This document shows positions 2,637 through 32,862 of a DNA stretch of 64,000 bases, in pieces. A program made the position numbers and the translations under genes. The notes below the pieces were generated by a model. That model worked only from the letters and a program-made list of their open reading frames with translations, was not told where the DNA came from and searched no databases. How positions within the stretch are numbered: position 1 is the stretch's first letter; every line of letters starts with the position of its first letter. The stretch lies in IMG/VR virus record IMGVR_UViG_2541047879_000001. One strand, given 5' to 3'. The stretch comes from a virus (lineage: Duplodnaviria > Heunggongvirae > Uroviricota > Caudoviricetes).

Positions 2637-3243
2637 TCTCCGGCACTCCTGTCTTACTGCCTTCGCCGTTATCATGATGCACATGGCCGGAATACCGTAT
2701 CCCTGCAATAACGGCATCCGACATTGTGAACAGTCCCTGAGATTTCCCCGTACCCTCAAGCGCGAAATTACCCTTAACATGCAGGTTCTTATCCACCGTC
2801 ACATTGCCCGTAAAGGTGGCTTCCGGCGTATCCACCCGCATCCCCTCGTCGGCGTAAATCTCCAGCATTTTGCATGTCACAATAATGCGGCCATCCTTTG
2901 TTAACCGTATCCGGTGCCCCTCATGGTGATACACCCCCGTATCTCCGGCTGTGAGTCCGGTCGGGCGGCTGCGCCGGTCTTCCACCACAAGCACCACAGT
3001 CTGATCCCGCTGTCCGCCCAGACAGGCAAAAAAGGTTTCCGCACCCGGCAGGGGAACGCTGATCTGCCCGTACTGCTGGGGACGCTCCACATCATCAAAG
3101 GTTTCGCCGTCCATGCCGGTGAGCTGCACATTCTGCATTTTCAGTTCGTCATGTGTGCCGGTCAGAACGCCCCGGCCAAACAACAGGCGAATACCGCGCG
3201 TTACCGGGGCAATCAGGCGGCTGAACACTTCATCATTCATCAA
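2629..3243 (-). CDS. Baseplate spike/assembly protein V-like (Mu gp45-like)
   Basis: 204-aa ORF between tail protein P-like and gp46-like genes. Confidence 0.55.
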   Translation of the reverse strand: MMNDEVFSRLIAPVTRGIRLLFGRGVLTGTHDELKMQNVQLTGMDGETFDDVERPQQYGQISVPLPGAETFFACLGGQRDQTVVLVVEDRRSRPTGLTAGDTGVYHHEGHRIRLTKDGRIIVTCKMLEIYADEGMRVDTPEATFTGNVTVDKNLHVKGNFALEGTGKSQGLFTMSDAVIAGIRYSGHVHHDNGEGSKTGVPENG

Positions 3244-4357
3244 AGCTGATCCCCTGTTTTTTCATCTGCTGGCGAATAAAGGCATCAACATCGTCACCGG
3301 AACCACCCCGGCCCTTACTGTCCGGCTCTGCCGGAACGATAAAGCCGTCACGCGGTGCCAGTACCAGCCGGGTGACTTCCCCGTTATGCTCATCAAGTAA
3401 AAACTCCACCTGACAGACCAGCAGTTCAGTCTGTTCTATACCGAAACGCAGGGCTGAAACACCGGTCAGCAGATTGACATCCCATAACCGGCCATCATCC
3501 CGGAACCAGCCACGCACGGTGGCAGAAAACCGTTCTGAACGGGCAATCGCACGGCGCATTTCACGCAGGGCACGCTGCCGTGCACCGGTGATGCCTGTCT
3601 GTTGATCGGCGAGGATGATTTTCGGCCGGTAGCGGCCGATCTGCTCATCACTGATGACGCCCACAGGTGCTGCCAGACGGGCGGCGGATTCGCTGTCTCC
3701 CCGTTTGCCACCACCGCGCCCGTGTCCCCGGACACGGTATTCGCTGTATCGTCCTCGCCAGTCCGTGTTGTAATCGGCATCAAGCAGGTTATCTCCCAGC
3801 ACCAGTCTGTCCGTCTGCTGGCTTCCTGCCTGGGTGAACACCAGATCGCCGTCAGCATTACTGGTCACCAGCACCCCGCGATGCCGGGCAGCACGGGTCA
3901 GCGCATCCGCCACGGTTTCTGAGTTTTCCAGCGTAAAAGAGCTGAAGGGGCGTGCAGCCGTGTCGTCGTTAACCTGCCAGCGCACGGCTATCCCGAAGGG
4001 CGCACATAAATCTGCGGCAATCTGTGCCAGCGTCCGGTTGCGCCACTGGCTGCCGGGATGGATGGCGGCACAGTCCACCAGGTCGCCGGTTTTATCCCGA
4101 CCGCTGATGCTGATCTGATGACGGGTTGCACTGATCCGCTGACTGACCTGATCCAGCCAGCCACTGATGACCGTCTGCCCGTTAATTCTGAGCGTCAGGG
4201 ACTGACCGGTCCGCAGGGCTGAGGGGATGCGCTCACCGGGCAGCATCAGCCCCAGTTCAAACGACCCGGCCAGATGCTCCAGCGAGCGACGGACGCTGAC
4301 CGTCAGCCAGCCGGAAAAAATACTGCCGCCGATATACAGTTCAATCCTGCTGCTCAC
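3233..4357 (-). CDS. Tail protein P-like (Mu gp44-like, baseplate hub)
   Basis: 374-aa ORF, translationally coupled to neighbours, conserved order after the DNA circulation protein. Confidence 0.6.
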   Translation of the reverse strand: MSSRIELYIGGSIFSGWLTVSVRRSLEHLAGSFELGLMLPGERIPSALRTGQSLTLRINGQTVISGWLDQVSQRISATRHQISISGRDKTGDLVDCAAIHPGSQWRNRTLAQIAADLCAPFGIAVRWQVNDDTAARPFSSFTLENSETVADALTRAARHRGVLVTSNADGDLVFTQAGSQQTDRLVLGDNLLDADYNTDWRGRYSEYRVRGHGRGGGKRGDSESAARLAAPVGVISDEQIGRYRPKIILADQQTGITGARQRALREMRRAIARSERFSATVRGWFRDDGRLWDVNLLTGVSALRFGIEQTELLVCQVEFLLDEHNGEVTRLVLAPRDGFIVPAEPDSKGRGGSGDDVDAFIRQQMKKQGISFDE

Positions 4358-21681: not shown

Positions 21682-22144
21682 CCGCCGAACGGCGGGCCTC
21701 AAGACCGGGGAGTTTCACCCCCTTTGAATAAATCCAGCGGATATACTGCTTACAGGACGCGGGCATCTGCCCGGCATTGATAAGGCGCAGGAGCGTGGAG
21801 TTGCGAAAGTTCGTTTCACCGGCCCAGAAAATCCAGGAGGCCAACGCCACCGTCTGACCACGGGTAAGCGGCACCTGAACATGACGATCGATAGCCGCAA
21901 AGGCCCATTTCATGTCCTTTTCCAGCAGCTCCAGACACTCTTCATCAGTTTTTGTCATCCCCGGTTTCACATCCGGGCCGGTATGGCCGTAACAGATGGT
22001 GGGGGTGCCGGTGGGATCAATGTACGTGGTGTTTTCTTTCCCTTCCCAGTAGCCGGTGTAGTGCGTGGCAATGGTGAACGTCCCGGCTCCGGCCAGAACA
22101 AGGGCAATCAGCTTTTTACGCAGGGGTGCGGGGAGTTTTGGCAT
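21644..22144 (-). CDS. SAR-type endolysin (T4-lysozyme-like muramidase)
   Basis: N-terminal hydrophobic signal-anchor; catalytic E-x8-D-x5-T triad (EGKENTTYIDPTGTPT). Confidence 0.8.
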   Translation of the reverse strand: MPKLPAPLRKKLIALVLAGAGTFTIATHYTGYWEGKENTTYIDPTGTPTICYGHTGPDVKPGMTKTDEECLELLEKDMKWAFAAIDRHVQVPLTRGQTVALASWIFWAGETNFRNSTLLRLINAGQMPASCKQYIRWIYSKGVKLPGLEARRSADEWLCRYDLPKV

Positions 22145-22215
22145 TGTTACGCTGTCTCATGGTGTTCTCTGAGTCAGCGTAACCGTGGGAAAAAGTGGGC
22201 AGGATTTGCGGAATA

Positions 22216-22638
22216 TCAGAAAAGCCGGGGCTGCGTGCGTTCCTGATGCAGGCGGCGCTGGTTACGGATAACGGAGTAAATCTGCGTCTCTGACATCTGG
22301 TAGTGGCGGCGCAGGGTTTCAATTTTTTCGCCCTGGCTCCAGCGGGAAAAAATCTCATTATTGCGCAGTTCGGTGAAAAGGGATTCACCGACCGGGAGAT
22401 AATAACCACGCCCGCCCATGTACCCGGCCTGTGCGGCCGCAACTTTACGGGCAAGCATTCCCGCCTGAGCAGGTTCAATCCCCTGACGGTGCAGTTCAGC
22501 ACTGATCACATCAACCAGGTCCCGCAGCGTGCCGGGCCAGTTCTTTTTCAGCTCATCATCAGGAATATCATCCAGACGGTCAATCAGCGCGTGCAGCTGT
22601 TCGCTGTCACCAAACATGCTCATCTGTGTTTCAGCCAT
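22216..22638 (-). CDS. Mor/C-family transcriptional activator
   Basis: 140-aa protein with C-terminal HTH, between gemA-like gene and lysis genes; only one Mor/C homologue seen. Confidence 0.65.
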   Translation of the reverse strand: MAETQMSMFGDSEQLHALIDRLDDIPDDELKKNWPGTLRDLVDVISAELHRQGIEPAQAGMLARKVAAAQAGYMGGRGYYLPVGESLFTELRNNEIFSRWSQGEKIETLRRHYQMSETQIYSVIRNQRRLHQERTQPRLF

Positions 22639-22708
22639 ACCCGCCTCCGGTCATCATTACACAGGGCAAGTTTAAAATAAAAATCCCGCGCTGTGGCGGG
22701 ATTTGGAG

Positions 22709-23221
22709 TTAACGGGGGAATGATTTTTCATACAGCCTGCAAACGCGCTCATAACTTATCACTGTACGCGCTGACATCCCCAGCACATCCAGCATTTTGC
22801 GGCGGTGCCAGCGTTTGAGACGCTCCAGCACATCAGAGGCCAGTGCGGGGTGTTGCTCCAGCCACTGCCAGTTAGCCACACCTTCACCGCCGTTCTGCGC
22901 GGCCGTCTGCGATTTCACCCAGCGGTTAATGGCGTTTTCCCCGCCATCAGCGATAAAGCCCTGCCGGTGCATCACTTTCCAGATGGCGCGAATTTTGGCG
23001 GTCACCGTCCCCGGTTTTAAGGCCCGGTTAACCGGCTTCTGACGCACTTTAAAACCGCGTTTTTTGAAAACATCCAGCACGCGGGATAACTCATCCGGTG
23101 ACATATCCCGGCAACTGGGTTTGCCGGTGGCTGCCAGTAGTACGGATGTGTAGGTCTCATGGTCAAGCTGTAGATCGCGTTTTGCGACATGTATTAAGGT
23201 AATCAGGGAAGCGCGATTCAT
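22709..23221 (-). CDS. GemA-like protein (Mu gp16-like)
   Basis: 170-aa ORF in conserved position upstream of mor; family recalled from Mu-like prophages. Confidence 0.6.
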   Translation of the reverse strand: MNRASLITLIHVAKRDLQLDHETYTSVLLAATGKPSCRDMSPDELSRVLDVFKKRGFKVRQKPVNRALKPGTVTAKIRAIWKVMHRQGFIADGGENAINRWVKSQTAAQNGGEGVANWQWLEQHPALASDVLERLKRWHRRKMLDVLGMSARTVISYERVCRLYEKSFPR

Positions 23222-23285
23222 TATCGTGTCTCCGTAACAACAGGCGGCATGGCAACGCCGCCCGGATAAAACTAAAGGTATCGAT

Positions 23286-23696
23286 ATGAAAATAGATTAC
23301 GATGAAGTATTAAGTATTCTCACAACTTTTCAGGATGCTGAAACACCTTTCCTTACACTACAGGATCTGGGCATGGCTGAGGCAGAAGGAGAGGAAAAGG
23401 ATAAAAAAGTTTTTCATCTTATGCTTCTCGCTGATAATGGCTCAATTGTTAATGGTGATATGCAGTCAGAAACACCCAAATATATTGGTTTCTTTTTCCA
23501 TTCTCTGGGCGTTGGTTTCAGAAACACGCCCATTATGCTTACCCAGCAGGGGCATGATTTAGCTAACGCCCTGAGAAAAAAACCAATCCTTGAAAGAATC
23601 AAAAAGGAGTTTACAGACGCACCATTTGATCTAATTAAAGAAGTTACCAAATCAATGTTAACCAGGTTCGTCAAAGAACGTATTGGGATTGACTGA
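23286..23696 (+). CDS. Hypothetical protein, opposite-strand insert in the Mu-like early region
   Basis: 136-aa ORF with RBS (aaagg 8 nt upstream), AT-rich codon usage, only plus-strand gene inside the minus-strand early operon. Confidence 0.45.
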   Translation: MKIDYDEVLSILTTFQDAETPFLTLQDLGMAEAEGEEKDKKVFHLMLLADNGSIVNGDMQSETPKYIGFFFHSLGVGFRNTPIMLTQQGHDLANALRKKPILERIKKEFTDAPFDLIKEVTKSMLTRFVKERIGID

Positions 23697-23966
23697 ACAA
23701 CTTAATTCAGCCAGTAATCGCAGGGCGGCGACAGCCGCCTGCTTGTCACTTCTTTTAGCTATTTCCGCAAGAGTATGCACAATCCATAACGGACTTAACG
23801 CCACGGCTGAATCCAGAATCATGTCATCCATAATAATTTCTGGCATATCCCGCTTGTCACATTCTTTATCCATAAAAGAAACGAATTTCTCTGCATCTTC
23901 CGGTTTCATGCCTCCGGCGATAAGGATTTTGCGATATTCATAAGACGATCTTAATTCAATACTCAT
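23658..23966 (-). CDS. Hypothetical protein
   Basis: 102-aa ORF, 3' end overlaps the convergent plus-strand ORF by 39 nt. Confidence 0.4.
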   Translation of the reverse strand: MSIELRSSYEYRKILIAGGMKPEDAEKFVSFMDKECDKRDMPEIIMDDMILDSAVALSPLWIVHTLAEIAKRSDKQAAVAALRLLAELSCSVNPNTFFDEPG

Positions 23967-23981
23967 TATTCACCTGCCTGC

Positions 23982-24374
23982 TTAATCTGTTTCCAGTGCT
24001 TTGCTACGGGCTATAGCCTCACATTCAAAAAATACCGACTCCGGCACGCGCTCTTTTAATTCACGAACAAGGAAATCATTAACGCGTTCATGACGTCTTA
24101 TATTTCTTTCCTTTTCCTCCTGGCGCAATACAGCAAGGCGGTATTCAACAGCCCGGCGTTGTTTCTGAAAGACAGCCAGTGCTTTTCTGGCAGCATTACG
24201 CCATGCATCATCGCCACATGGTGCGTATTCAAGCTGAAATTTAATCTCTTCAATAGTTTCTTTGATTTTTGCCAGCAAGCTAAGACAGTCGCTTATTGTC
24301 TCCAGCTTTTCATTATCAATATAACTTCTCACGCATTCACCTCCCGTAATTCCGGTAAAGCCGAAATATGACAC
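23982..24374 (-). CDS. Hypothetical coiled-coil protein (start uncertain)
   Basis: 130-aa track ORF; real start probably downstream of 24374 to avoid overlap with the upstream gene. Confidence 0.35.
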   Translation of the reverse strand: MSYFGFTGITGGECVRSYIDNEKLETISDCLSLLAKIKETIEEIKFQLEYAPCGDDAWRNAARKALAVFQKQRRAVEYRLAVLRQEEKERNIRRHERVNDFLVRELKERVPESVFFECEAIARSKALETD

Positions 24375-24658
24375 CAGTGCGTCACCTGTCCGTCTTCATC
24401 TTCAAGGCAGGCTCCGGTTTCTTCATCAACAAAAAAGCCTTCATACCCCATATGGCCGATGCGCAGCTCCTGACGGTGACCATACTGAACAATCAGCACG
24501 ACAGCCTCCATATCAGGTGGGAAAGCATCATTCAGTGAATGCCAGGGATAACCGCGTAAATCCCCGAAATAAACACCGGTCAGCGTTCCGCCACAGAGCG
24601 GCATTCCGGCGGCACACACAAGAGGTTCATCTGATTCAACAAATAAGGTCGTTATCAT
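24329..24658 (-). CDS. Hypothetical protein
   Basis: 109-aa ORF, translationally coupled to upstream gene. Confidence 0.4.
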   Translation of the reverse strand: MITTLFVESDEPLVCAAGMPLCGGTLTGVYFGDLRGYPWHSLNDAFPPDMEAVVLIVQYGHRQELRIGHMGYEGFFVDEETGACLEDEDGQVTHWCHISALPELREVNA

Positions 24659-25206
24659 GGCGTTAACTCCCGTAATACAGCGTCCTCGGCAGTCCGGCGA
24701 CGGTAATAAACTGCGTGAGCAGAATGTTCAGATATTCCAAACTTTTCGCCAATTTCCCGGAATGACAGACGGCGTGGGTAATCGGAATCACGCAGCGCAC
24801 GTATAAGACGTACATCATCATCAGATATGCGCGTGCCGGGGCGTAACTCTCCGCACTTTGTTAATCCAGCACCAATCATTCCTGCCCGACATCTGACAGA
24901 ATCTTTATTACGTCCGAGATATTCTCCCATTTGCTGGCAGGTCATTGTTCTGGCATTTTTTCGAATAAACTTATCTTCATCAGGTGTAAATCTTGGGTGT
25001 TTATATTTCAGTAACTCCGGGTATGAACTGCGCAATACACCAGTCCGGTTATATACAGCCCAGACAGTTCTTTTTATTCTGGCAGCAATATCCTTAACCG
25101 GGGTGGATGAATAAAGCGCAATCAGTAGCGCATCTTCTTCAGGTGTCCACGCGCGGACATGAGCGGGTGTACGACCTTTTCGCCCCATGTGTTGTAAAAT
25201 CATCAT
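24655..25206 (-). CDS. Hypothetical protein with three HTH-like repeats
   Basis: Three repeats of a W/F-TP-(E/D)ED...(I/V)...G motif. Confidence 0.45.
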   Translation of the reverse strand: MMILQHMGRKGRTPAHVRAWTPEEDALLIALYSSTPVKDIAARIKRTVWAVYNRTGVLRSSYPELLKYKHPRFTPDEDKFIRKNARTMTCQQMGEYLGRNKDSVRCRAGMIGAGLTKCGELRPGTRISDDDVRLIRALRDSDYPRRLSFREIGEKFGISEHSAHAVYYRRRTAEDAVLRELTP

Positions 25207-25209
25207 ACA

Positions 25210-25725
25210 TCACCCCCTGACTCGCTTTTCGGCAGCATAAAACTCATCAGACAGAATTTCGGTCATTTTCCGTTTTGCGGAATCATCTTCGCACTGAAGA
25301 TAAATCACATTGTCAACGCAGAACCAGTTCACGGGACCATACAATATTGCTGAGAAGTCAATACCCAGCCAGAACAACAGGGCATCGGTTCTGGCATACG
25401 TGACGGGCGAATATTCACGCCACAGACTGTTCAGTTCATCAGAGGCAACACGCAGGGCTTTAGGGATACGTGATGTGCGCGGTGTGCAGCTCCAGCCATT
25501 CGACGCAGTCGGTTTTCGCCATAAGTCGCGATGAAAAGGATATTTGTCCTCCGTAAAACGCAGTCCCTTAAAACAAAAACCACTGATACTGAATTCAAAT
25601 ACCGACCGGCACGCAACATTCAGCACGGCCTCAAGGCGTTTCGCCTCATCTTTTACCGTCTGGCAGTCCTGCTGGTATTTTTGCCACGCAGCCAGCGCGG
25701 AAGGGTTTGATGTTTTAAAGAACAT
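25210..25725 (-). CDS. Hypothetical Mu-like early protein
   Basis: 171-aa ORF in semi-essential early region. Confidence 0.45.
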   Translation of the reverse strand: MFFKTSNPSALAAWQKYQQDCQTVKDEAKRLEAVLNVACRSVFEFSISGFCFKGLRFTEDKYPFHRDLWRKPTASNGWSCTPRTSRIPKALRVASDELNSLWREYSPVTYARTDALLFWLGIDFSAILYGPVNWFCVDNVIYLQCEDDSAKRKMTEILSDEFYAAEKRVRG

Positions 25726-26901: not shown

Positions 26902-27432
26902 TTATTTATTCAGTCCGGCATCCTGTTCAAAAGGCTCGACATAAAAACTTTCAGCGCCTTTATTCACCTTTATACCGGCAATGCCTTTCACCGCATCCGG
27001 CTCCGCCAGGACGGCTTCCTTGTTCACTTCCTCTTTCGTGCGGATGAATCGCTCAAGCCCCATACGGCGCAGCGTGTCAATCACACCTTCCACATCACGG
27101 CTGACGCTGCATGATGGCGTTCCCAGCCGCCATGACACCGTTCCGGTGGTCAGATTGGCAGTTTTGGTTTTGCCGCCGTTCGTCAGCTCATCACGGTTGG
27201 TTTTACACCAGTCCTGAATCCCTTTAAAAAGCACTTTGATTTGCTTTTTAAGATTTTCAATCTGCGGCGTATAACGGGCGGTGATTTCTGCCACTTCATC
27301 ATTCATCGCCGTTTCCAGGCGCAGCGCCTCTCGCTGAATATCGCCCAGGGTGCGGATATCGCGGCTGACTTCTTCGCGGGTCTGCGGTGCGGCCTCGGCT
27401 ACAGCCTTTAATTTTGTAACGCGTTTTGCCAT
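26902..27432 (-). CDS. gam: Host-nuclease inhibitor Gam (Mu Gam/Ku-like DNA end-binding protein)
   Basis: 176-aa protein with the Mu Gam sequence signature (MAKRVTKLK...), correct position in early operon. Confidence 0.85.
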   Translation of the reverse strand: MAKRVTKLKAVAEAAPQTREEVSRDIRTLGDIQREALRLETAMNDEVAEITARYTPQIENLKKQIKVLFKGIQDWCKTNRDELTNGGKTKTANLTTGTVSWRLGTPSCSVSRDVEGVIDTLRRMGLERFIRTKEEVNKEAVLAEPDAVKGIAGIKVNKGAESFYVEPFEQDAGLNK

Positions 27433-28560: not shown

Positions 28561-28788
28561 TTAGCTGACTTGTTTCGCACCAACAGAACGGCATATTCCG
28601 CTGTAAACTTCTGTCGCACCTTCGCGATCAAGTCCGGCAGATATCACCATTCGTGTGCGGTCATTAAATTCAAAAAGTAAATCGCCACATTCTTTATTTT
28701 CGGCCAGTGAAATCACCTTCACGTTATCGAAATTAACCAGGTAAAAGCGTCCGTAAATATCAGGAATATTAAATACCGCCATAATCAC
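28561..28788 (-). CDS. Hypothetical small protein in the kil position downstream of B
   Basis: 75-aa ORF immediately after the B-like gene; positional analogy only. Confidence 0.35.
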   Translation of the reverse strand: MIMAVFNIPDIYGRFYLVNFDNVKVISLAENKECGDLLFEFNDRTRMVISAGLDREGATEVYSGICRSVGAKQVS

Positions 28789-29726
28789 ACCTGTGAGAGT
28801 AATTCAGGGTTGGTATAAACCTCTTTAAAGGCCGCATTAATATGTTTTTCTGTCAGCGCCGCGCCTTCACCGCTGGCGGTGAGCCACGCCTGGTTAAGCG
28901 TATGTGTCAGAACGCGTAACGCTCCCGGCTTTTCAGCGATAGCCTGCATGACGGCCAGCTCGGCCTCACCACTGATCCCCCACGCCATGGCAATGGCCAG
29001 CACATCCGCCTTTTTGGCCTTGCGAAGTTGTTTTGTACGGGCAAGACGGCTGAACAGGCGCGATAAATCATCAAAGGCGCGGCGTCCACCTTTAAACAAT
29101 CCGCGCGGGTTACCAATAAGCACCATCCCGATCCCCGTGGCGTCCTGAATTGCCCGGAGTTGCTCCAGACCGTCAATACCAAGATGATCCGCCTCATCCA
29201 CAATCACCAGTCCACGCGTTCCCATCAGGCGACGGCGGATGGCGCGGGATAATGCCCCTTTGTTCGCGCGGGTGTAATCAATCCCCAGCGCATCGGCCAG
29301 CTCCAGCAGACACTCCGTGACGCTGGAGTGCGCGGGTGACAGGGTGATCATCCAGGTGTTTGGTTGCTCCTGGCAGTAATTACGGGCAGTGGCCGTTTTA
29401 CCCACACCCGGTACGCCCACAATAACGTTAATACAGCCCATCAGGCGAACCGCCTGAAACAGTGCGCGCAGCTCCTGGACTGTCTGAGTTTCCACAAACT
29501 GCGGCGGTTCCGGCAGTGCGCTTTGTTTATTCCAGTTCTCATACCAGGAGCGCAGGGAAGCAGCCACAGCAGCGTTATCGCCTTTATATTTTCCCTTACG
29601 GAAAGCCGATAATGTGCCGTCGGAAATTCCCGCCTCTCTGGCGATGGCATACTGCGTCAGTACGCCGCCATCAATAAGTTCATCAATGGTCTTGATTACA
29701 TCGTTAATATCGGTCATATTATTCAC
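28785..29726 (-). CDS. B: DNA transposition protein B (MuB-like AAA+ ATPase)
   Basis: Walker A GVPGVGKT, Walker B LVIVDEADHL, N-terminal HTH; directly downstream of transposase. Confidence 0.85.
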   Translation of the reverse strand: MNNMTDINDVIKTIDELIDGGVLTQYAIAREAGISDGTLSAFRKGKYKGDNAAVAASLRSWYENWNKQSALPEPPQFVETQTVQELRALFQAVRLMGCINVIVGVPGVGKTATARNYCQEQPNTWMITLSPAHSSVTECLLELADALGIDYTRANKGALSRAIRRRLMGTRGLVIVDEADHLGIDGLEQLRAIQDATGIGMVLIGNPRGLFKGGRRAFDDLSRLFSRLARTKQLRKAKKADVLAIAMAWGISGEAELAVMQAIAEKPGALRVLTHTLNQAWLTASGEGAALTEKHINAAFKEVYTNPELLSQV

Positions 29727-29799: not shown

Positions 29800-31890
29800 T
29801 CAGGCCAGCGGATCACTTTCTTTTAATTTCGCTTCGAGCAACTGCAATCCCCGCTGGAAATTACGCTCGTATTCTTCATCAGGTTCATCGTCAGCGACCG
29901 GTTGCTGAACGGTCACCGTATTACCCACAGGGCGGTATATGTTTTCCAGCCAGGGCTCCTGCGGCTTGTGCTCCAGCACGTTGACAACCTCATCCTCGGC
30001 ATCACGGATTTTTTCCTCTGCGCGTTTACGCATGCCTTTAAGGCGCTGCTGCTGTTTGTAGTATTCCGCGCTGACAGGGAAGGCTTCGCGTTTATTGCCG
30101 TCCCATACCGCCTCGCAAATCACGCTGCCATCCGGGCGGCGCACGGTAATTCGTTCGGCATCATGAATGTCATAGCTGATAAGTACCTTACGGCCATGCT
30201 CGTCACGCAGCTCGGGCGCGTAGTAAATATTATTCAGCCAGCGTATTTCACAGCGTCTTACAGGGCGCTCCACCATCGGCCGGAACATATCCCGCAGTTC
30301 AACATCGGACAGCCATTCAATTTCCGTGTCCTCTTCCGCCAGGCGTTTTTTTCTGAACTCCGCCGGGCTGTAATGTTTACCGTTCGGCTTCATGGGTAAT
30401 TCATCGTGCGGCCGGTTGTTGTACCACTCAACACCGTCACGAATGGCATCAATCAGTTCAGACCAGGACGGTAAATCACGCATCGCTGACTGCTGCCGGG
30501 CGTTCAGCCGTTTGCCCTGTTGCAGGGCACTGAATGCCGAGCGTAAATCGCGGTTGGTTTTACGTAACGTCTCGCGATCTGCTCCTTTCCCGAAATAGGT
30601 GCGGTATTTACGGGCTATGCGCATCGGTAATGTGCGGTTAAGCCGTTCGATAATGCCCCGTCCCTGCGGATTACCGGCAATCCCTGTCGGGTGATTAATC
30701 CCCAGTCGTGGCAGTATCCCCACAATCTCCTTATCCAGGACGTCGGCGGTTTCCCCGGAGCCATTATCCGAGTAATACAGAAACGGTTTGCCATGATGGC
30801 GAATACCGTGCTGTATGGCACCGGCTACGGCGAAAACATTTTCAGCCAGGTCAAGGCTCCAGCCCACCACAAAGCGCGTGCCACCGTCGATAACAAAGGT
30901 CACTTCCGGTGCGAATGGCCGCCCGTGAACCGGGTGCGCGCATTTCAGCTTCATGCCGTGACCGTCACCAATCCAGACATAATTCACCGGCATTCTGGAC
31001 CAGTCGCGGCGCGTGAATCCCTCAAGCTGACGGTATTCACTGCCAGTTACCCGGCCTTTTTGTTTCACCACTTCCGGCAGTTTCTTCATTGCGCGGCGAA
31101 TGGTGTCATAAGAGGGCATGATATCGAGCATATAAGGCTCATCAGCGTGCCGGTGCTGCCATTCAGCAACAAAATCCTCGTAAGCCTCGGTCATTGGTCG
31201 GCCGTTTGACTGGCGATACTGCGCCAGAAATTCGGGCAGCCAGTTAATATCTTCGGCTTTTATTTCCTGGCGTTTACCCGGTGCCAGTAAAAGCAGGCGT
31301 TCAGCGGCGTTCTGTGCCTTGTTAAAGGCCGCAATCCAGCGTTTCAGCGTGATTTCACTCAACGCGCGGCTGTTTCCCTTTTTGGCGTTCGCCGTCTCAA
31401 CCATTGCCACAATGCGCTCGTCCAGTTGTGATCGTGCCAGGCTGTTAACGAGGAACCGGATAGCCTTAGCGCAACTAAAGCCGGGTTGTTGCGCGATTTT
31501 CAGCACCTCGCTGACGATCGCTATTCGTGCCTCTGCCACTTTACGTTGGTTTTCAGTCAGGGCATTGAGGCGTTCGACCATCAGTTGGGGTGATCCGCGA
31601 TATGCCTCCACCGCATCAACCACGGCAGGTGAGCGTCTGGCCTTTGTCACCACCGGAGCCGGTGATTCATCGGCTTTTTGCGTCATCAGTTGCAGGGCGT
31701 AGCGTTCACGTAATGCCTGCTGCGTCACTTCAGGTAAACAGTCGATGCTGTATTCAGTTGCTTTAGAGCCTGAGCGACGACGGGAACAACAGCTTTTCCC
31801 TTGTACGTAACGTTGTAATGCCTGGCGAATACCTTTTGTTGTAGCAGGCATTCCGGGCGCGCCAATCAGTTCTTTTGCAATGACATACAT
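29800..31890 (-). CDS. A: DDE transposase A (MuA-like)
   Basis: 696-aa protein with clear similarity to MuA, downstream of ner. Confidence 0.9.
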   Translation of the reverse strand: MYVIAKELIGAPGMPATTKGIRQALQRYVQGKSCCSRRRSGSKATEYSIDCLPEVTQQALRERYALQLMTQKADESPAPVVTKARRSPAVVDAVEAYRGSPQLMVERLNALTENQRKVAEARIAIVSEVLKIAQQPGFSCAKAIRFLVNSLARSQLDERIVAMVETANAKKGNSRALSEITLKRWIAAFNKAQNAAERLLLLAPGKRQEIKAEDINWLPEFLAQYRQSNGRPMTEAYEDFVAEWQHRHADEPYMLDIMPSYDTIRRAMKKLPEVVKQKGRVTGSEYRQLEGFTRRDWSRMPVNYVWIGDGHGMKLKCAHPVHGRPFAPEVTFVIDGGTRFVVGWSLDLAENVFAVAGAIQHGIRHHGKPFLYYSDNGSGETADVLDKEIVGILPRLGINHPTGIAGNPQGRGIIERLNRTLPMRIARKYRTYFGKGADRETLRKTNRDLRSAFSALQQGKRLNARQQSAMRDLPSWSELIDAIRDGVEWYNNRPHDELPMKPNGKHYSPAEFRKKRLAEEDTEIEWLSDVELRDMFRPMVERPVRRCEIRWLNNIYYAPELRDEHGRKVLISYDIHDAERITVRRPDGSVICEAVWDGNKREAFPVSAEYYKQQQRLKGMRKRAEEKIRDAEDEVVNVLEHKPQEPWLENIYRPVGNTVTVQQPVADDEPDEEYERNFQRGLQLLEAKLKESDPLA

Positions 31891-31891
31891 A

Positions 31892-32140
31892 TCATGACGC
31901 CTTTCTCATATAGCTCTTAACCTGGTATCGACTGGGCCAGATTTCTTCAGGTGATACCCCAAGAGCATCAGCAATTATTTGCTGATACGGTCGGCAAGGA
32001 GTACGTAATACGCTTTTCAGCGAATCCCTGCTGTAACCAGCCTTTAAAGATAAAGAGCGCAGTGATAAGCCAGCCATGTGTAAGCGCGCCTTGATGATTT
32101 CAGGCGGCCAATCGTGATCTGAAACTTCTCTTCTACTCAT
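31892..32140 (-). CDS. ner: Ner-like DNA-binding regulator (Ner/Nlp family)
   Basis: 82-aa HTH protein (LSLRSLSLKAGYSRDSLKSVL) first in the early operon. Confidence 0.8.
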   Translation of the reverse strand: MSRREVSDHDWPPEIIKARLHMAGLSLRSLSLKAGYSRDSLKSVLRTPCRPYQQIIADALGVSPEEIWPSRYQVKSYMRKAS

Positions 32141-32331
32141 ACTTCCTCTATTCTAAAAAGTTACCCGCGCGGATATTCGTGCGGATATCTGTACGGGTAA
32201 ATAATGCATCACCAAAAATACCAAATCAAGGTATTTTTGGTATTTTTGGCTAATTTTTGCTTTTATCCTTATTTTTCAATTGGATAAATAGAAAGAAACC
32301 TTTCCTTAGAAAAGCACCAAGAGGTATCTTT
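32141..32331. promoter_or_regulatory. Divergent early/repressor promoter-operator region
   Basis: Intergenic between divergent ner and repressor genes; inverted repeat ccaaaaatacc / ggtatttttgg and tandem ggtatttttgg copies around 32212-32250. Confidence 0.5.
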
Positions 32332-32862
32332 ATGTCGCAGGGAAAAGAACCTGTTATTGAACGTATTGGAATGCTTACAAAGCGCTACCCTTCAAGAAGT
32401 GCAGCTGCCAGAGCGTGGGGAATCAATATCAACACATTAAACAGCTATTTCAAGGGAGGACAAACACAACCAGCCCCCAGAGAAAGTATCCTTATACGAA
32501 TTTCTGAAAGTGAAGGCGTTAGTCTTGAGTGGCTTAAAGAGGGCAAGGGTGAATTACCAAACGATATTGGTATTTATGGTAATTTTGGTTGTTCTGGTGA
32601 TAAGGGAGATCAGCTTACACAGATGCTTTCATTCCTTACGAAAGACGAACGAGAACAGTTAACCAATCTCCTTGCTCGCAAAGGTGTAGAGACGGTTCTG
32701 ACACTGCTGAATAAAGAAAACCAGGATTTATTACAACTAGAAGGCAGGAAGCGCCTGGCTGCGTTGATGATTGTAGATATGCCAGACGATTGCGTCAGAG
32801 AGATTTTGGAAAAAACCGAGACAAGTAGGCAATCAAATCCGGTAGAATCTAAAGCGGGTTAG
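32332..32862 (+). CDS. Putative prophage repressor (Mu c-type position)
   Basis: HTH SRSAAARAWGININTLNSYF; divergent from ner-A-B at the prophage end; start at internal ATG with RBS aagagg. Confidence 0.6.
   Translation: MSQGKEPVIERIGMLTKRYPSRSAAARAWGININTLNSYFKGGQTQPAPRESILIRISESEGVSLEWLKEGKGELPNDIGIYGNFGCSGDKGDQLTQMLSFLTKDEREQLTNLLARKGVETVLTLLNKENQDLLQLEGRKRLAALMIVDMPDDCVREILEKTETSRQSNPVESKAG

Follow-up and report, generated by a model that had tools for sequence, protein, structure and literature searches.

A DUF2513 gene opposed to the early operon of an Escherichia coli Mu-like prophage and its possible role as a lysogeny-strand accessory gene

The single plus-strand gene found within the minus-strand early operon of this E. 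coli Mu-like prophage encodes a protein of the DUF2513 family and, judging from its conservation, it is a genuine gene under purifying selection. The best explanation that we can offer, with a probability of roughly 0.45, is that it is a moron-like accessory gene, located on the lysogeny strand and silenced by convergent early transcription. The gene is already known as a RefSeq annotation, since an identical CDS is recorded as WP_000687317.1 ('DUF2513 domain-containing protein'). As matters stand, it can be regarded as an ordinary prophage accessory gene, and the value of the analysis is that the ORF is explained and the idea of a toxin-antitoxin pair is removed. The window mentioned below is the whole stretch of DNA analyzed (64,000 nt), and the coordinates of the relevant features are summarized in Table 1.

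Table 1. Location of the features of the window considered in this work
Feature	Position	Strand	Remarks
mor	22216-22638	-	
gemA (gp16 family)	22709-23221	-	Pfam GemA, E 6e-28
Segment replaced with respect to Sp18-like E. coli Mu-like prophages (swapped module)	23195-23721		527 bp, from blastn breakpoints
GC-rich hairpin, GGCGGC-N8-GCCGCC	23241-23265	-	between the gemA ribosome-binding site and the DUF2513 start
DUF2513 / phrog_585 gene	23286-23696	+	136 aa, ATG start, from the ORF listing
Convergent 3′ overlap of the DUF2513 gene and p102	23658-23696		39 nt
phrog_1988 gene (p102)	23658-23966	-	102 aa, early-operon member, convergent with the DUF2513 gene
phrog_6158 gene	23982-24332	-	E 1e-54, residues 15-130 of the long ORF
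gam	26902-27432	-	
MuB	28785-29726	-	
MuA	29800-31890	-	
ner	31892-32140	-	
Repressor-like gene	32257-32862	+	

Position, family and predicted fold of the plus-strand gene

The early-operon genes ner, MuA, MuB, gam, a gp11-like gene, gemA and mor run on the minus strand. The first-pass annotation had pointed to one 136-aa ORF, provided with a ribosome-binding site, as the only plus-strand gene among them, and this is borne out by the coordinates and strands of Table 1 and by the presence of a Shine-Dalgarno-like AAAGG at 23274-23278, 7 nt 5′ of the ATG. The orientation of the gene is the same as that of the prophage repressor, both here and in L051 and L053 (L numbers designate the loci compared). 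Its GC content is 0.387, with a GC3 of 0.346, versus 0.523 in 8 kb of flanking sequence, and in 32 of 32 distinct loci the GC content of the gene was lower than that of the flanks. The earlier description of an AT-rich insert is thus correct for the gene, but the low-GC zone also covers the neighbours, which are conserved in relatives, up to position ~24450, so the AT-richness is not confined to the supposed insert.

The DUF2513 gene is divergent from gemA, with 64 nt between them (in other lineages just 30 nt separate the start codons), and any promoter of its own must sit in or beside the gemA 5′ end. No sigma-70-like promoter with at least 8 of 12 matches was detected in the 260 nt upstream, consensus scans of this kind being insensitive and activator-dependent promoters lying outside their scope, and no plus-strand terminator was detected with either standard or relaxed scan criteria. 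A Mor-dependent promoter was considered and dropped; the mor-lysozyme intergenic region, compared by eye, displayed no shared motif. An Rfam scan of positions 22000-25500 returned no RNA family, and neither direct nor inverted repeats, as marks of IS-like or site-specific insertion, were found flanking the module.

Concerning the encoded protein, it matches phrog_585 end to end (E 7.1e-18, residues 1-134 on profile positions 1-126 of 128). By itself it matches Pfam DUF2513 (PF10711) on profile positions 1-96 of 100 with E 6.6e-5, although the score of 23.6 bits is below the gathering threshold of 29.6 bits. Membership of the family is reached through intermediate sequences: with the profile of this protein, 91 of the 119 full-length homologues match DUF2513 at E ≤ 0.01, the best of them at E 9e-15. 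YjcQ (PF09639) is a related family, which is also matched by one DUF2513 relative. Among 1.84 billion representatives, the homologues of the 136-aa protein make up 251 clusters, within which they are recognisable down to ~30% identity. The dN/dS ratio of the gene is ~0.1-0.3, and pN is much smaller than pS in every informative pair between lineages. The start codon and the N-terminus are conserved, with M1 kept in 99% of the relatives.

The AlphaFold model of the protein (pLDDT 97) displays a compact winged helix plus three C-terminal helices, and the order of its predicted elements, helix-strand-helix-helix-wing, is that of solved wHTH proteins. The protein has no enzymatic domain and, by its fold, it may bind DNA. 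Compared to the winged-helix proteins of the PadR, MarR and TubR types, however, the identity is only 12-19%, the wing is larger, with four strands, and, in what concerns TubR, the locus contains no TubZ-like partner. Neither PadR nor MarR was matched in Pfam, and a conserved basic DNA-contact surface, as in PadR and MarR, was not found. The protein is acidic (pI 5.2, the family median being 5.3), the conserved residues of the presumed recognition helix (35-50) are hydrophobic or His, with few conserved basic ones, and Arg84 of the wing, present in 96% of the relatives, is replaced by Met in this allele. The acidic family, the hydrophobic recognition helix and the Met84 allele are observations that go against the DNA-binding part of the explanation offered above.

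The DUF2513 protein did not match any characterised protein. Profile searches of solved structures, run with both its family and that of the convergent neighbour p102, gave nothing significant: TUT4 at E 0.11 was taken as noise, and so was the weak, non-significant likeness of p102 to RuvA domain III at E 0.25. Foldseek found nothing among the viral structures of BFVD at E ≤ 0.001, and the longer DUF2513 relatives contain no informative extra domain as a fusion partner. Literature searches for DUF2513 or PF10711 yielded no paper mentioning them, so membership of this family is silent on mechanism; those on Sp18 and Mu-like prophages yielded nothing specific except the analogy with phage Fc02 considered below.

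The convergent neighbour, the overlap and the replaced segment

The product of p102 is an acidic, helical protein that matches phrog_1988 with E 1.3e-38 and is under purifying selection as estimated from pN versus pS. No Pfam or PADLOC family was found for p102 and 16 relatives. The 39-nt overlap between the 3′ ends of both genes, reported in the first-pass annotation, is confirmed. Each protein takes its final 12 residues from this overlap, the codons of the two frames being in exactly antiparallel phase, and p102 stops at the antisense of the TTA codon of DUF2513 Leu125. The core of the p102 family stops at ...ELS, and the 12-aa tail is restricted to the lineages having an overlap. In other lineages the overlap lengths are 30, 18, 15, 0, -2 and -3 nt, and in all the overlapping cases the phase is identical and the partner stops opposite a Leu codon, either TTA or CTA. 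The overlap can be explained because the phrog_1988 frame runs beyond its ancestral end to the first antisense TTA or CTA in DUF2513, the source of the p102 tail being the antisense of the Leu-rich C-terminal helix of DUF2513. The possibility of a selected feature was rejected on account of the variation in length and the antisense derivation of the tail. From the comparison of the loci, the overlap is incidental, a by-product of tight packing with no special role.

The slot occupied by the DUF2513 gene, between the phrog_1988 gene and gemA, had been proposed to be variable, and so it is: Sp18-like relatives contain two small minus-strand genes in it, and others contain different genes or none. 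The blastn breakpoints are located at 23194/23722 versus L002 and L003, where 584 nt with those two small genes take the place of the module. So, what the first-pass annotation called an insert does differ among relatives, but with respect to the Sp18-like ones it is a replaced segment and not a simple insertion. The module spans ~9 codons at the start of gemA, the hairpin of the gemA-DUF2513 spacer, the entire DUF2513 gene and ~20 codons at the end of p102. It is 100% identical in five of the six E. coli genomes that have it complete, and 99.8% identical in the sixth. In strain 102651, one of these genomes, the surrounding 3.1 kb are only 94.5% identical.

The hairpin of the module looks like a minus-strand terminator or attenuator placed just upstream of gemA. 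By folding, its stem changes are compensatory in L005, L018 and L024, with one pair being G-U on the minus strand only, and in these three loci it is followed on the minus strand by T6-T8, while the T-run of this window is degenerate (TGTTGTTAC). The hairpin is missing in the DUF2513-less Sp18-like relatives and in the lineages with a 30-nt intergenic region, and it is retained in the deletion variant L061. Being palindromic, it is also a candidate, though only that, for a binding site of the DUF2513 protein.

As to the phrog_6158 gene, its start in RefSeq is 24332, where it overlaps the stop of the upstream gene by 4 nt. The region had been extended up to 24374 by taking an over-extended start for this gene, since both RefSeq and the PHROG alignment give 24332. 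The gene is 92-95% identical in L002-L004. Relatives keep it whether they have DUF2513 or not, and nothing ties it to the DUF2513 module.

Distribution among relatives and genomic contexts

The DUF2513 gene was found in 6-7 of 5426 E. coli genomes, versus 232 genomes with this prophage region. About 97% of the related E. coli prophages are without the module, and p102 alone occurs in ~226 of the 232 genomes. L061, a near-identical relative, displays a clean 365-nt deletion of the DUF2513 ORF, and two DUF2513 variants are frameshifted at A-tracts, which together indicate that the gene is accessory. The loss of the ORF in a close relative with unchanged flanks had been proposed as an outcome contrary to a functional insert. 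It does occur in L061, and it is better interpreted as the behaviour of a dispensable gene than as that of a non-gene. Judging from these comparisons and from base composition, the gene is mobile and can be dispensed with, and it is richer in AT than the sequence around it.

On the other hand, the suggestion of a lineage-specific insertion did not stand, as the arrangement with minus-strand gemA, plus-strand DUF2513 and convergent minus-strand phrog_1988 is old and widespread. It is also found in loci of Citrobacter, Edwardsiella, Pantoea and others whose DUF2513 is 45-54% identical. The alleles of DUF2513 and p102 have been exchanged independently, as seen by comparing L007 with L021 and L021 with L023. 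DUF2513 occurs without p102 in L030-32, L014, Vibrio loci and a TrfA plasmid, and phrog_1988 occurs without DUF2513 in L061, L107-114, Sp18-like prophages and Yersinia.

The convergent DUF2513-phrog_1988 pair was found in at least four contexts, i.e., upstream of gemA, in the gemA-mor gap, in baseplate operons and beside Arc-like genes, and DUF2513 was opposed to the lytic operon, either early or baseplate, in every such case. A phrog_1988 gene was beside DUF2513 in 16 of the 21 DUF2513 clusters sampled, a proportion that is inflated because the loci were sampled through close homologues and are biased to the subfamily near this protein. In L031, DUF2513 is co-directional with, and 76 nt downstream of, a CI-like repressor (HTH_3 plus Peptidase_S24). 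Arc-like genes precede it in L030 and L044, and in L044 phrog_1988 stands alone amid plus-strand genes. Distant DUF2513 relatives occupy classic moron positions, e.g., after P2/HP1-like tail-fibre genes. The rule emerging from the comparison is that, in unrelated phages, DUF2513 is repeatedly placed head-on to lytic operons and abutting the 3′ end of phrog_1988. This recurrent pairing hints at a two-gene function, which a single-gene model like the moron one leaves unexplained.

Possible roles of the gene

From sequence considerations, we infer a moron-like behaviour with expression from the repressed prophage. The DUF2513 gene would be expressed in lysogeny, when the early operon is repressed, and on induction the convergent transcription would silence it, since the early/gemA-mor transcript would read antisense over the entire gene. 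Indirect support for such expression comes from the repressor-strand orientation of the gene and, in other phages, from its location after CI-like or Arc-like genes. The product would bind nucleic acid or protein, and its most plausible roles would be superinfection exclusion, immunity or regulation. Both the deviant base composition of the gene and its presence or absence among otherwise related phages are as in morons. In phage lambda, rexAB are exclusion genes of the lysogeny operon placed downstream of cI. In the Pseudomonas Mu-like phage Fc02, superinfection exclusion is due to repressor-strand genes that the lysogen transcribes (olg1/gene 10), and these overlap a lytic-strand gene (PMC9936078). 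Like rexAB or olg1, the DUF2513 gene is accessory, of deviant composition, variably present and on the repressor strand, opposed to and overlapping a lytic-strand gene, and the position of the L031 homologue just after a CI-like repressor resembles that of rexAB. However, DUF2513 has no sequence similarity to the rexAB or Fc02 genes, it is surrounded by early-operon genes and placed outside the immunity region, and no promoter or terminator of its own was found, which are differences with those systems. The negative result of the promoter and terminator scans is, besides, a point against the preferred explanation.

Another explanation is that the DUF2513 gene, in lysogeny, and phrog_1988, in the lytic phase, form an antagonistic pair, either an exclusion or defence factor and its antidote or a repressor and its anti-repressor, with convergent transcription reinforcing their mutually exclusive expression and orphan phrog_1988 genes being retained antidotes. 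The same convergent pair, ranging from the 39-nt overlap to a 3-nt gap, recurs in the contexts described above, and the partner is present in most of the sampled clusters, subject to the inflation already indicated. Moreover, in three of the four contexts (not in L044) phrog_1988 runs in the direction of the lytic operon, DUF2513 is always opposed to it, and phrog_1988 often outlasts the loss of DUF2513, the reverse occurring mainly in distant subfamilies. Against this, the alleles are swapped independently, there are DUF2513 relatives without phrog_1988 on other phages and plasmids, and in L014/L087, one prophage, DUF2513 is kept with a truncated partner. Also, a partner encoded in baseplate operons would be a late product, and both proteins are acidic. 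On balance, we consider an antagonistic pair unlikely, but far from negligible. Its wider version would also be unlikely, namely that a mobile two-gene cassette inserts into lytic operons of diverse temperate phages, supplying a lysogeny factor and a lytic-only phrog_1988 antidote, with head-on transcription enforcing the switch and orphan phrog_1988 genes acting as counter-measures. The logic would be that of BstA with aba, a prophage defence with built-in self-immunity, in which a prophage-made factor is neutralised, when the phage itself grows lytically, by an element that this phage also carries. BstA has no homology to DUF2513 or phrog_1988, and its antidote is a DNA element, whereas that of the cassette would be a protein. 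Were the pairing functional, it would represent a new cassette of antagonists of the lysogeny and lytic phases and the first functional handle on both families.

The DUF2513 protein could also act in cis on its own phage, and not on the host or on competitors, with the module and its minus-strand hairpin and T-run tuning the read-through of the early operon into gemA-mor, the timing of late genes or their leakiness. In Mu-like loci the module is always just upstream of gemA or mor, the hairpin has compensatory changes and a T-run in L005, L018 and L024, and a winged-helix gene that points away from its putative target is a layout typical of autoregulators. But the same pair is found in baseplate operons or beside repressor genes of phages without gemA or mor nearby, the hairpin is missing where the intergenic region is 30 nt and in this window is followed by a degenerate T-run, and the great majority of the related E. 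coli prophages do without the module. A regulator of this kind seems rather improbable. The idea of toxin-antitoxin or defence cargo, put forward in the first-pass annotation, is largely refuted, and it is now very improbable that the two genes form a type II toxin-antitoxin pair or belong to a known system of defence or anti-defence. It is true that, as in type II modules, a mobile element has two small genes side by side, with an HTH-type fold in one of the products, and that the pair co-occurs at many loci. Type II modules are operonic, however, while these genes are convergent and not co-transcribed, each of them is alone in many genomes, with shuffled alleles and no co-inheritance, so that neither is obligatory, and no toxin fold was recognised. 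The profile searches proposed for both proteins gave no toxin, antitoxin or PADLOC match: in PADLOC-DB 2.0 there was no hit for the DUF2513 protein and only one at E 0.068, to PDC-S72, for p102, and neither toxin or antitoxin Pfam families nor PADLOC families were found for the 119 DUF2513 relatives, where five scattered PADLOC hits at E 0.001 or weaker are at chance level. Finally, a spurious ORF, open by chance on the antisense strand of a non-coding spacer within the early operon, would agree with the failure to detect a promoter and with the deletion or frameshift of the ORF in some close relatives. It is refuted by its conservation to ~30% identity in 251 clusters, strong purifying selection, a confident compact fold and the almost invariant M1, which leave it a negligible probability.

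Returning to the moron-like accessory gene that we prefer, one more observation concerns exclusion. A single genome contains two copies of the DUF2513-bearing prophage, which goes against that explanation in so far as it sits awkwardly with a strong exclusion of the same phage.

The plus-strand gene and its product

The region is identical to E. coli strain JKHS016 over the 3.1 kb compared (100% identity), and its features are collected in the table. The first-pass annotation had singled out an AT-rich plus-strand ORF lying in a minus-strand early operon and overlapping the 3′ end of a convergent gene by 39 nt. This was borne out by the ORF positions, by the GC content (GC 0.387 and GC3 0.346, with flanks at 0.523) and by RefSeq, where the identical CDS is entered as 'DUF2513 domain-containing protein'. 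The ORF has a Shine-Dalgarno motif, AAAGG, 7 nt 5′ of its start. The range given there needs correcting, since the end at 24374 belongs to a third gene, of the phrog_6158 family, the start of which is more likely the GTG at 24332: this start overlaps by 4 nt the stop of the upstream gene and is also the one in RefSeq, and the PHROG alignment of the 130-aa ORF begins only at residue 15.

Features of the Mu-like early region (window coordinates)
Feature	Position	Strand	Remarks
Early operon of the Mu-like prophage	32140 to 22216	minus	ner, MuA, MuB, gam, gp11-like gene, gemA, mor
Repressor-like gene	32257-32862	plus	
DUF2513 ORF, 136 aa	23286-23696	plus	sole plus-strand gene within the early operon
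phrog_1988 ORF, 102 aa	23658-23966	minus	39-nt overlap with the DUF2513 ORF
phrog_6158 gene, first listed as a 130-aa ORF	23982-24374		probable GTG start at 24332, giving 116 aa
Segment non-homologous to the Sp18-like form	23195-23721		first ~9 gemA codons, intergenic region, DUF2513 gene, final ~20 codons of the phrog_1988 ORF
GC hairpin of the window's lineage	~23241-23265		between gemA RBS and DUF2513 start
Strong intrinsic-terminator-like hairpin	22681-22704	minus	AAATCCCGC-N6-GCGGGATTT then TTATTTT; between gemA stop and mor start

The ORF is a real gene. It matched phrog_585 end to end (E 7e-18), and 251 relatives of its product, nearly all of 130–150 aa, came up when its profile was run against 1.84 billion cluster representatives. 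The match of the window's own ORF to Pfam DUF2513 was weak (23.6 bits, not reaching the cut-off of 29.6 bits); that family was matched by 91 of 119 aligned relatives. Between lineages, pN was far below pS (e.g. 0.16 versus 0.69), with dN/dS around 0.1–0.3.

With the 119-sequence alignment as input, AlphaFold gave a winged-helix model with a pLDDT of 97; profile and structure searches found no closer solved or characterised protein, and a literature search found no paper on the DUF2513 family. Family members are acidic, with a median pI of 5.3, and the putative recognition helix is mainly hydrophobic. The most conserved basic residue of the family, Arg84 in the wing, present in 96% of the 119 members, is replaced in the window's protein by Met (codon at 23535-23537), an allele of E. 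coli/Shigella in which activity may be altered or lost. Given these three traits, it is the modelled fold that points to possible DNA binding.

Distribution and mosaicism

The prophage region occurs in 232 of 5426 complete E. coli genomes, and the segment bearing the DUF2513 gene in only six of these, plus one fragment. In the common Sp18-like form its place is taken by a pair of short genes on the minus strand, of 98 and 65 aa; in other relatives the slot holds different genes or is empty. The segment is 100% identical in five of the six genomes and 99.8% identical in the sixth. One of these genomes, strain 102651, is nevertheless only 94.5% identical to the window over the surrounding 3.1 kb, while in an O157-type relative the left flank is 84% and the right flank 97% identical. 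Such a pattern is ordinary phage mosaicism. Two DUF2513-bearing copies of the prophage region occur within a single genome (NZ_AP022815.1, JE86-ST05, at ~714.8 kb and ~1436 kb; also NZ_AP022811.1), which implies that a phage of this type has recently transposed or formed a double lysogen.

In L061, a near-identical metagenomic relative (3180-3480, aligned with window 23150-23800), the DUF2513 gene is removed by a clean 365-nt deletion between short CTTTA(A/G)T repeats, with the tail of the 102-aa gene, the hairpin and gemA all retained. Two independent frameshift variants were found at A-tracts, one in locus L015 (A7 to A6) and the other in variant P0004 at another tract (window positions 23575-23581 and ~23403-23408); sequencing error, decay or a slippage-prone switch could each account for them. 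The phage can dispense with the gene. In L088 (3523-3789, minus strand of the locus), from a Mu-like lineage lacking DUF2513, the phrog_1988/gemA slot holds a 100-aa sense-strand gene, together with a candidate ORF of 88 aa that is counter-oriented but of a different kind.

Within E. coli the gene looks like a lineage-specific insertion, but not outside it: the order gemA(−), DUF2513(+), phrog_1988(−) recurs in loci whose DUF2513 proteins are only 45–54% identical, from Citrobacter, Edwardsiella, Pantoea and other isolates, and in many of these MuA, MuB and gam are present as well. In Citrobacter, Kluyvera and Klebsiella the convergent pair stands between gemA and mor; Providencia, Erwinia and others have it in baseplate operons, with spike/hub genes on one side and sheath-initiator/baseplate-J genes on the other; and in a further setting it adjoins two Arc-like genes. 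In a sample of 21 DUF2513 clusters (90% identity), biased to close homologues of the window's protein, 16 were directly adjoined by a convergent phrog_1988 homologue. The DUF2513 gene was AT-richer than its flanks in all 32 distinct loci, and always ran against the surrounding lytic operon.

Where phrog_1988 is missing, close relatives directly follow, in the same orientation, either a CI-like HTH + S24 repressor gene or an Arc-like gene. More distant ones follow P2/HP1-type tail-fibre genes, adjoin ParB/methylase genes or lie on a TrfA plasmid, so the family is not confined to phages; on that small TrfA-replicon plasmid (L120-L122) the gene adjoins a TacA/GNAT (TacT-like) toxin-antitoxin pair. 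In a Providencia phage with the pair in its baseplate operon (L123/L124), a 'Microcin' gene (PF03526; 1841-2191, minus) is also counter-oriented in the tail-gene cluster, where backwards accessory genes are recurrent.

Overlap and transcription signals

The core of the phrog_1988 family terminates at ...AAVAAL..L.ELS, and in lineages without overlap the protein stops there, 0–3 nt from the DUF2513 stop. In the others, its frame runs on into the antisense of the C-terminal helix of DUF2513, the codons of the two genes being exactly antiparallel in phase, up to the first DUF2513 Leu codon reading TAA or TAG on the opposite strand, which gives overlaps of 15, 18, 30 or 39 nt. The seeming conservation of the phrog_1988 tail (F.E.G) reflects that of the DUF2513 helix. 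The antisense-derived tail is still present in the deletion derivatives (L061, L107-114), which shows the direction of events. The overlap results from tight packing and speaks neither for antisense control nor for a design of the toxin-antitoxin type.

The signal scan found for the DUF2513 gene no sigma-70-like promoter, even at 8 of 12 matches, and no plus-strand terminator; around the region there was no Rfam family and there were no flanking repeats. In several lineages the gemA and DUF2513 starts are just 30 nt apart, so that any DUF2513 promoter must lie within gemA and each gemA-mor transcript must cross the entire DUF2513 gene in antisense. The GC hairpin in front of gemA travels with the module. 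Its stem varies in a compensatory way across the intergenic regions of L005, L018 and L024; in relatives one pair can form only as G-U on minus-strand RNA, and a T6-T8 run, degenerate in the window, follows on the minus strand. For these reasons it resembles a terminator or attenuator. The hairpin between gemA and mor suggests a partial uncoupling of mor from early transcription.

Role of the DUF2513 gene

On the best-supported reading the gene is a moron-like accessory one, carried by the lysogeny strand, as it is mobile, compositionally deviant, dispensable and on the repressor strand, and lies downstream of the repressor in other phages. Convergent lytic transcription should silence it. There is a precedent in the Pseudomonas Mu-like phage Fc02: its lysogen transcribes genes of the repressor strand that bring about superinfection exclusion and overlap a gene of the lytic strand (PMC9936078). 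The protein may act by binding and so serve in exclusion, immunity or regulation, though confidence in this is moderate at most.

The first-pass annotation had thought of toxin/antitoxin or defence cargo. As a toxin-antitoxin pair or a known defence system, the reading is contradicted by the gene orientation, by the lack of a match to any toxin, antitoxin or PADLOC family, by the free occurrence of DUF2513 and phrog_1988 each without the other, and by their independent allele exchange: loci L007 and L021 have phrog_1988 in common (pS 0.06) and very different DUF2513 genes (pS 0.69), for L021 and L023 it is the other way round, and in all three the recombination junction falls between the two genes. 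The same shuffling makes it rather unlikely that both genes form a joint functional unit, as do the DUF2513 relatives without phrog_1988 and the sampling bias, even though the pair turns up in several operons unrelated to one another, which suggests joint travel, phage mobility units are often functional units, and phrog_1988 often survives DUF2513 loss in the manner of orphan antidotes.

The plus-strand gene of the window is a correctly observed accessory gene, with its annotation already in RefSeq, and it belongs with the moron-like genes of prophages and, by its product, with the winged-helix proteins. The comparative rule, the pairing of DUF2513 with phrog_1988 against lytic operons, is modestly interesting and worth experiment.

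A separate observation concerns the late genes. In Mu, the late activator C is placed between mor and the lysozyme gene; here mor is directly followed by the lysozyme gene (window 22145-22215), with no C-like activator between them, and Mor may itself drive the late genes in this phage group.
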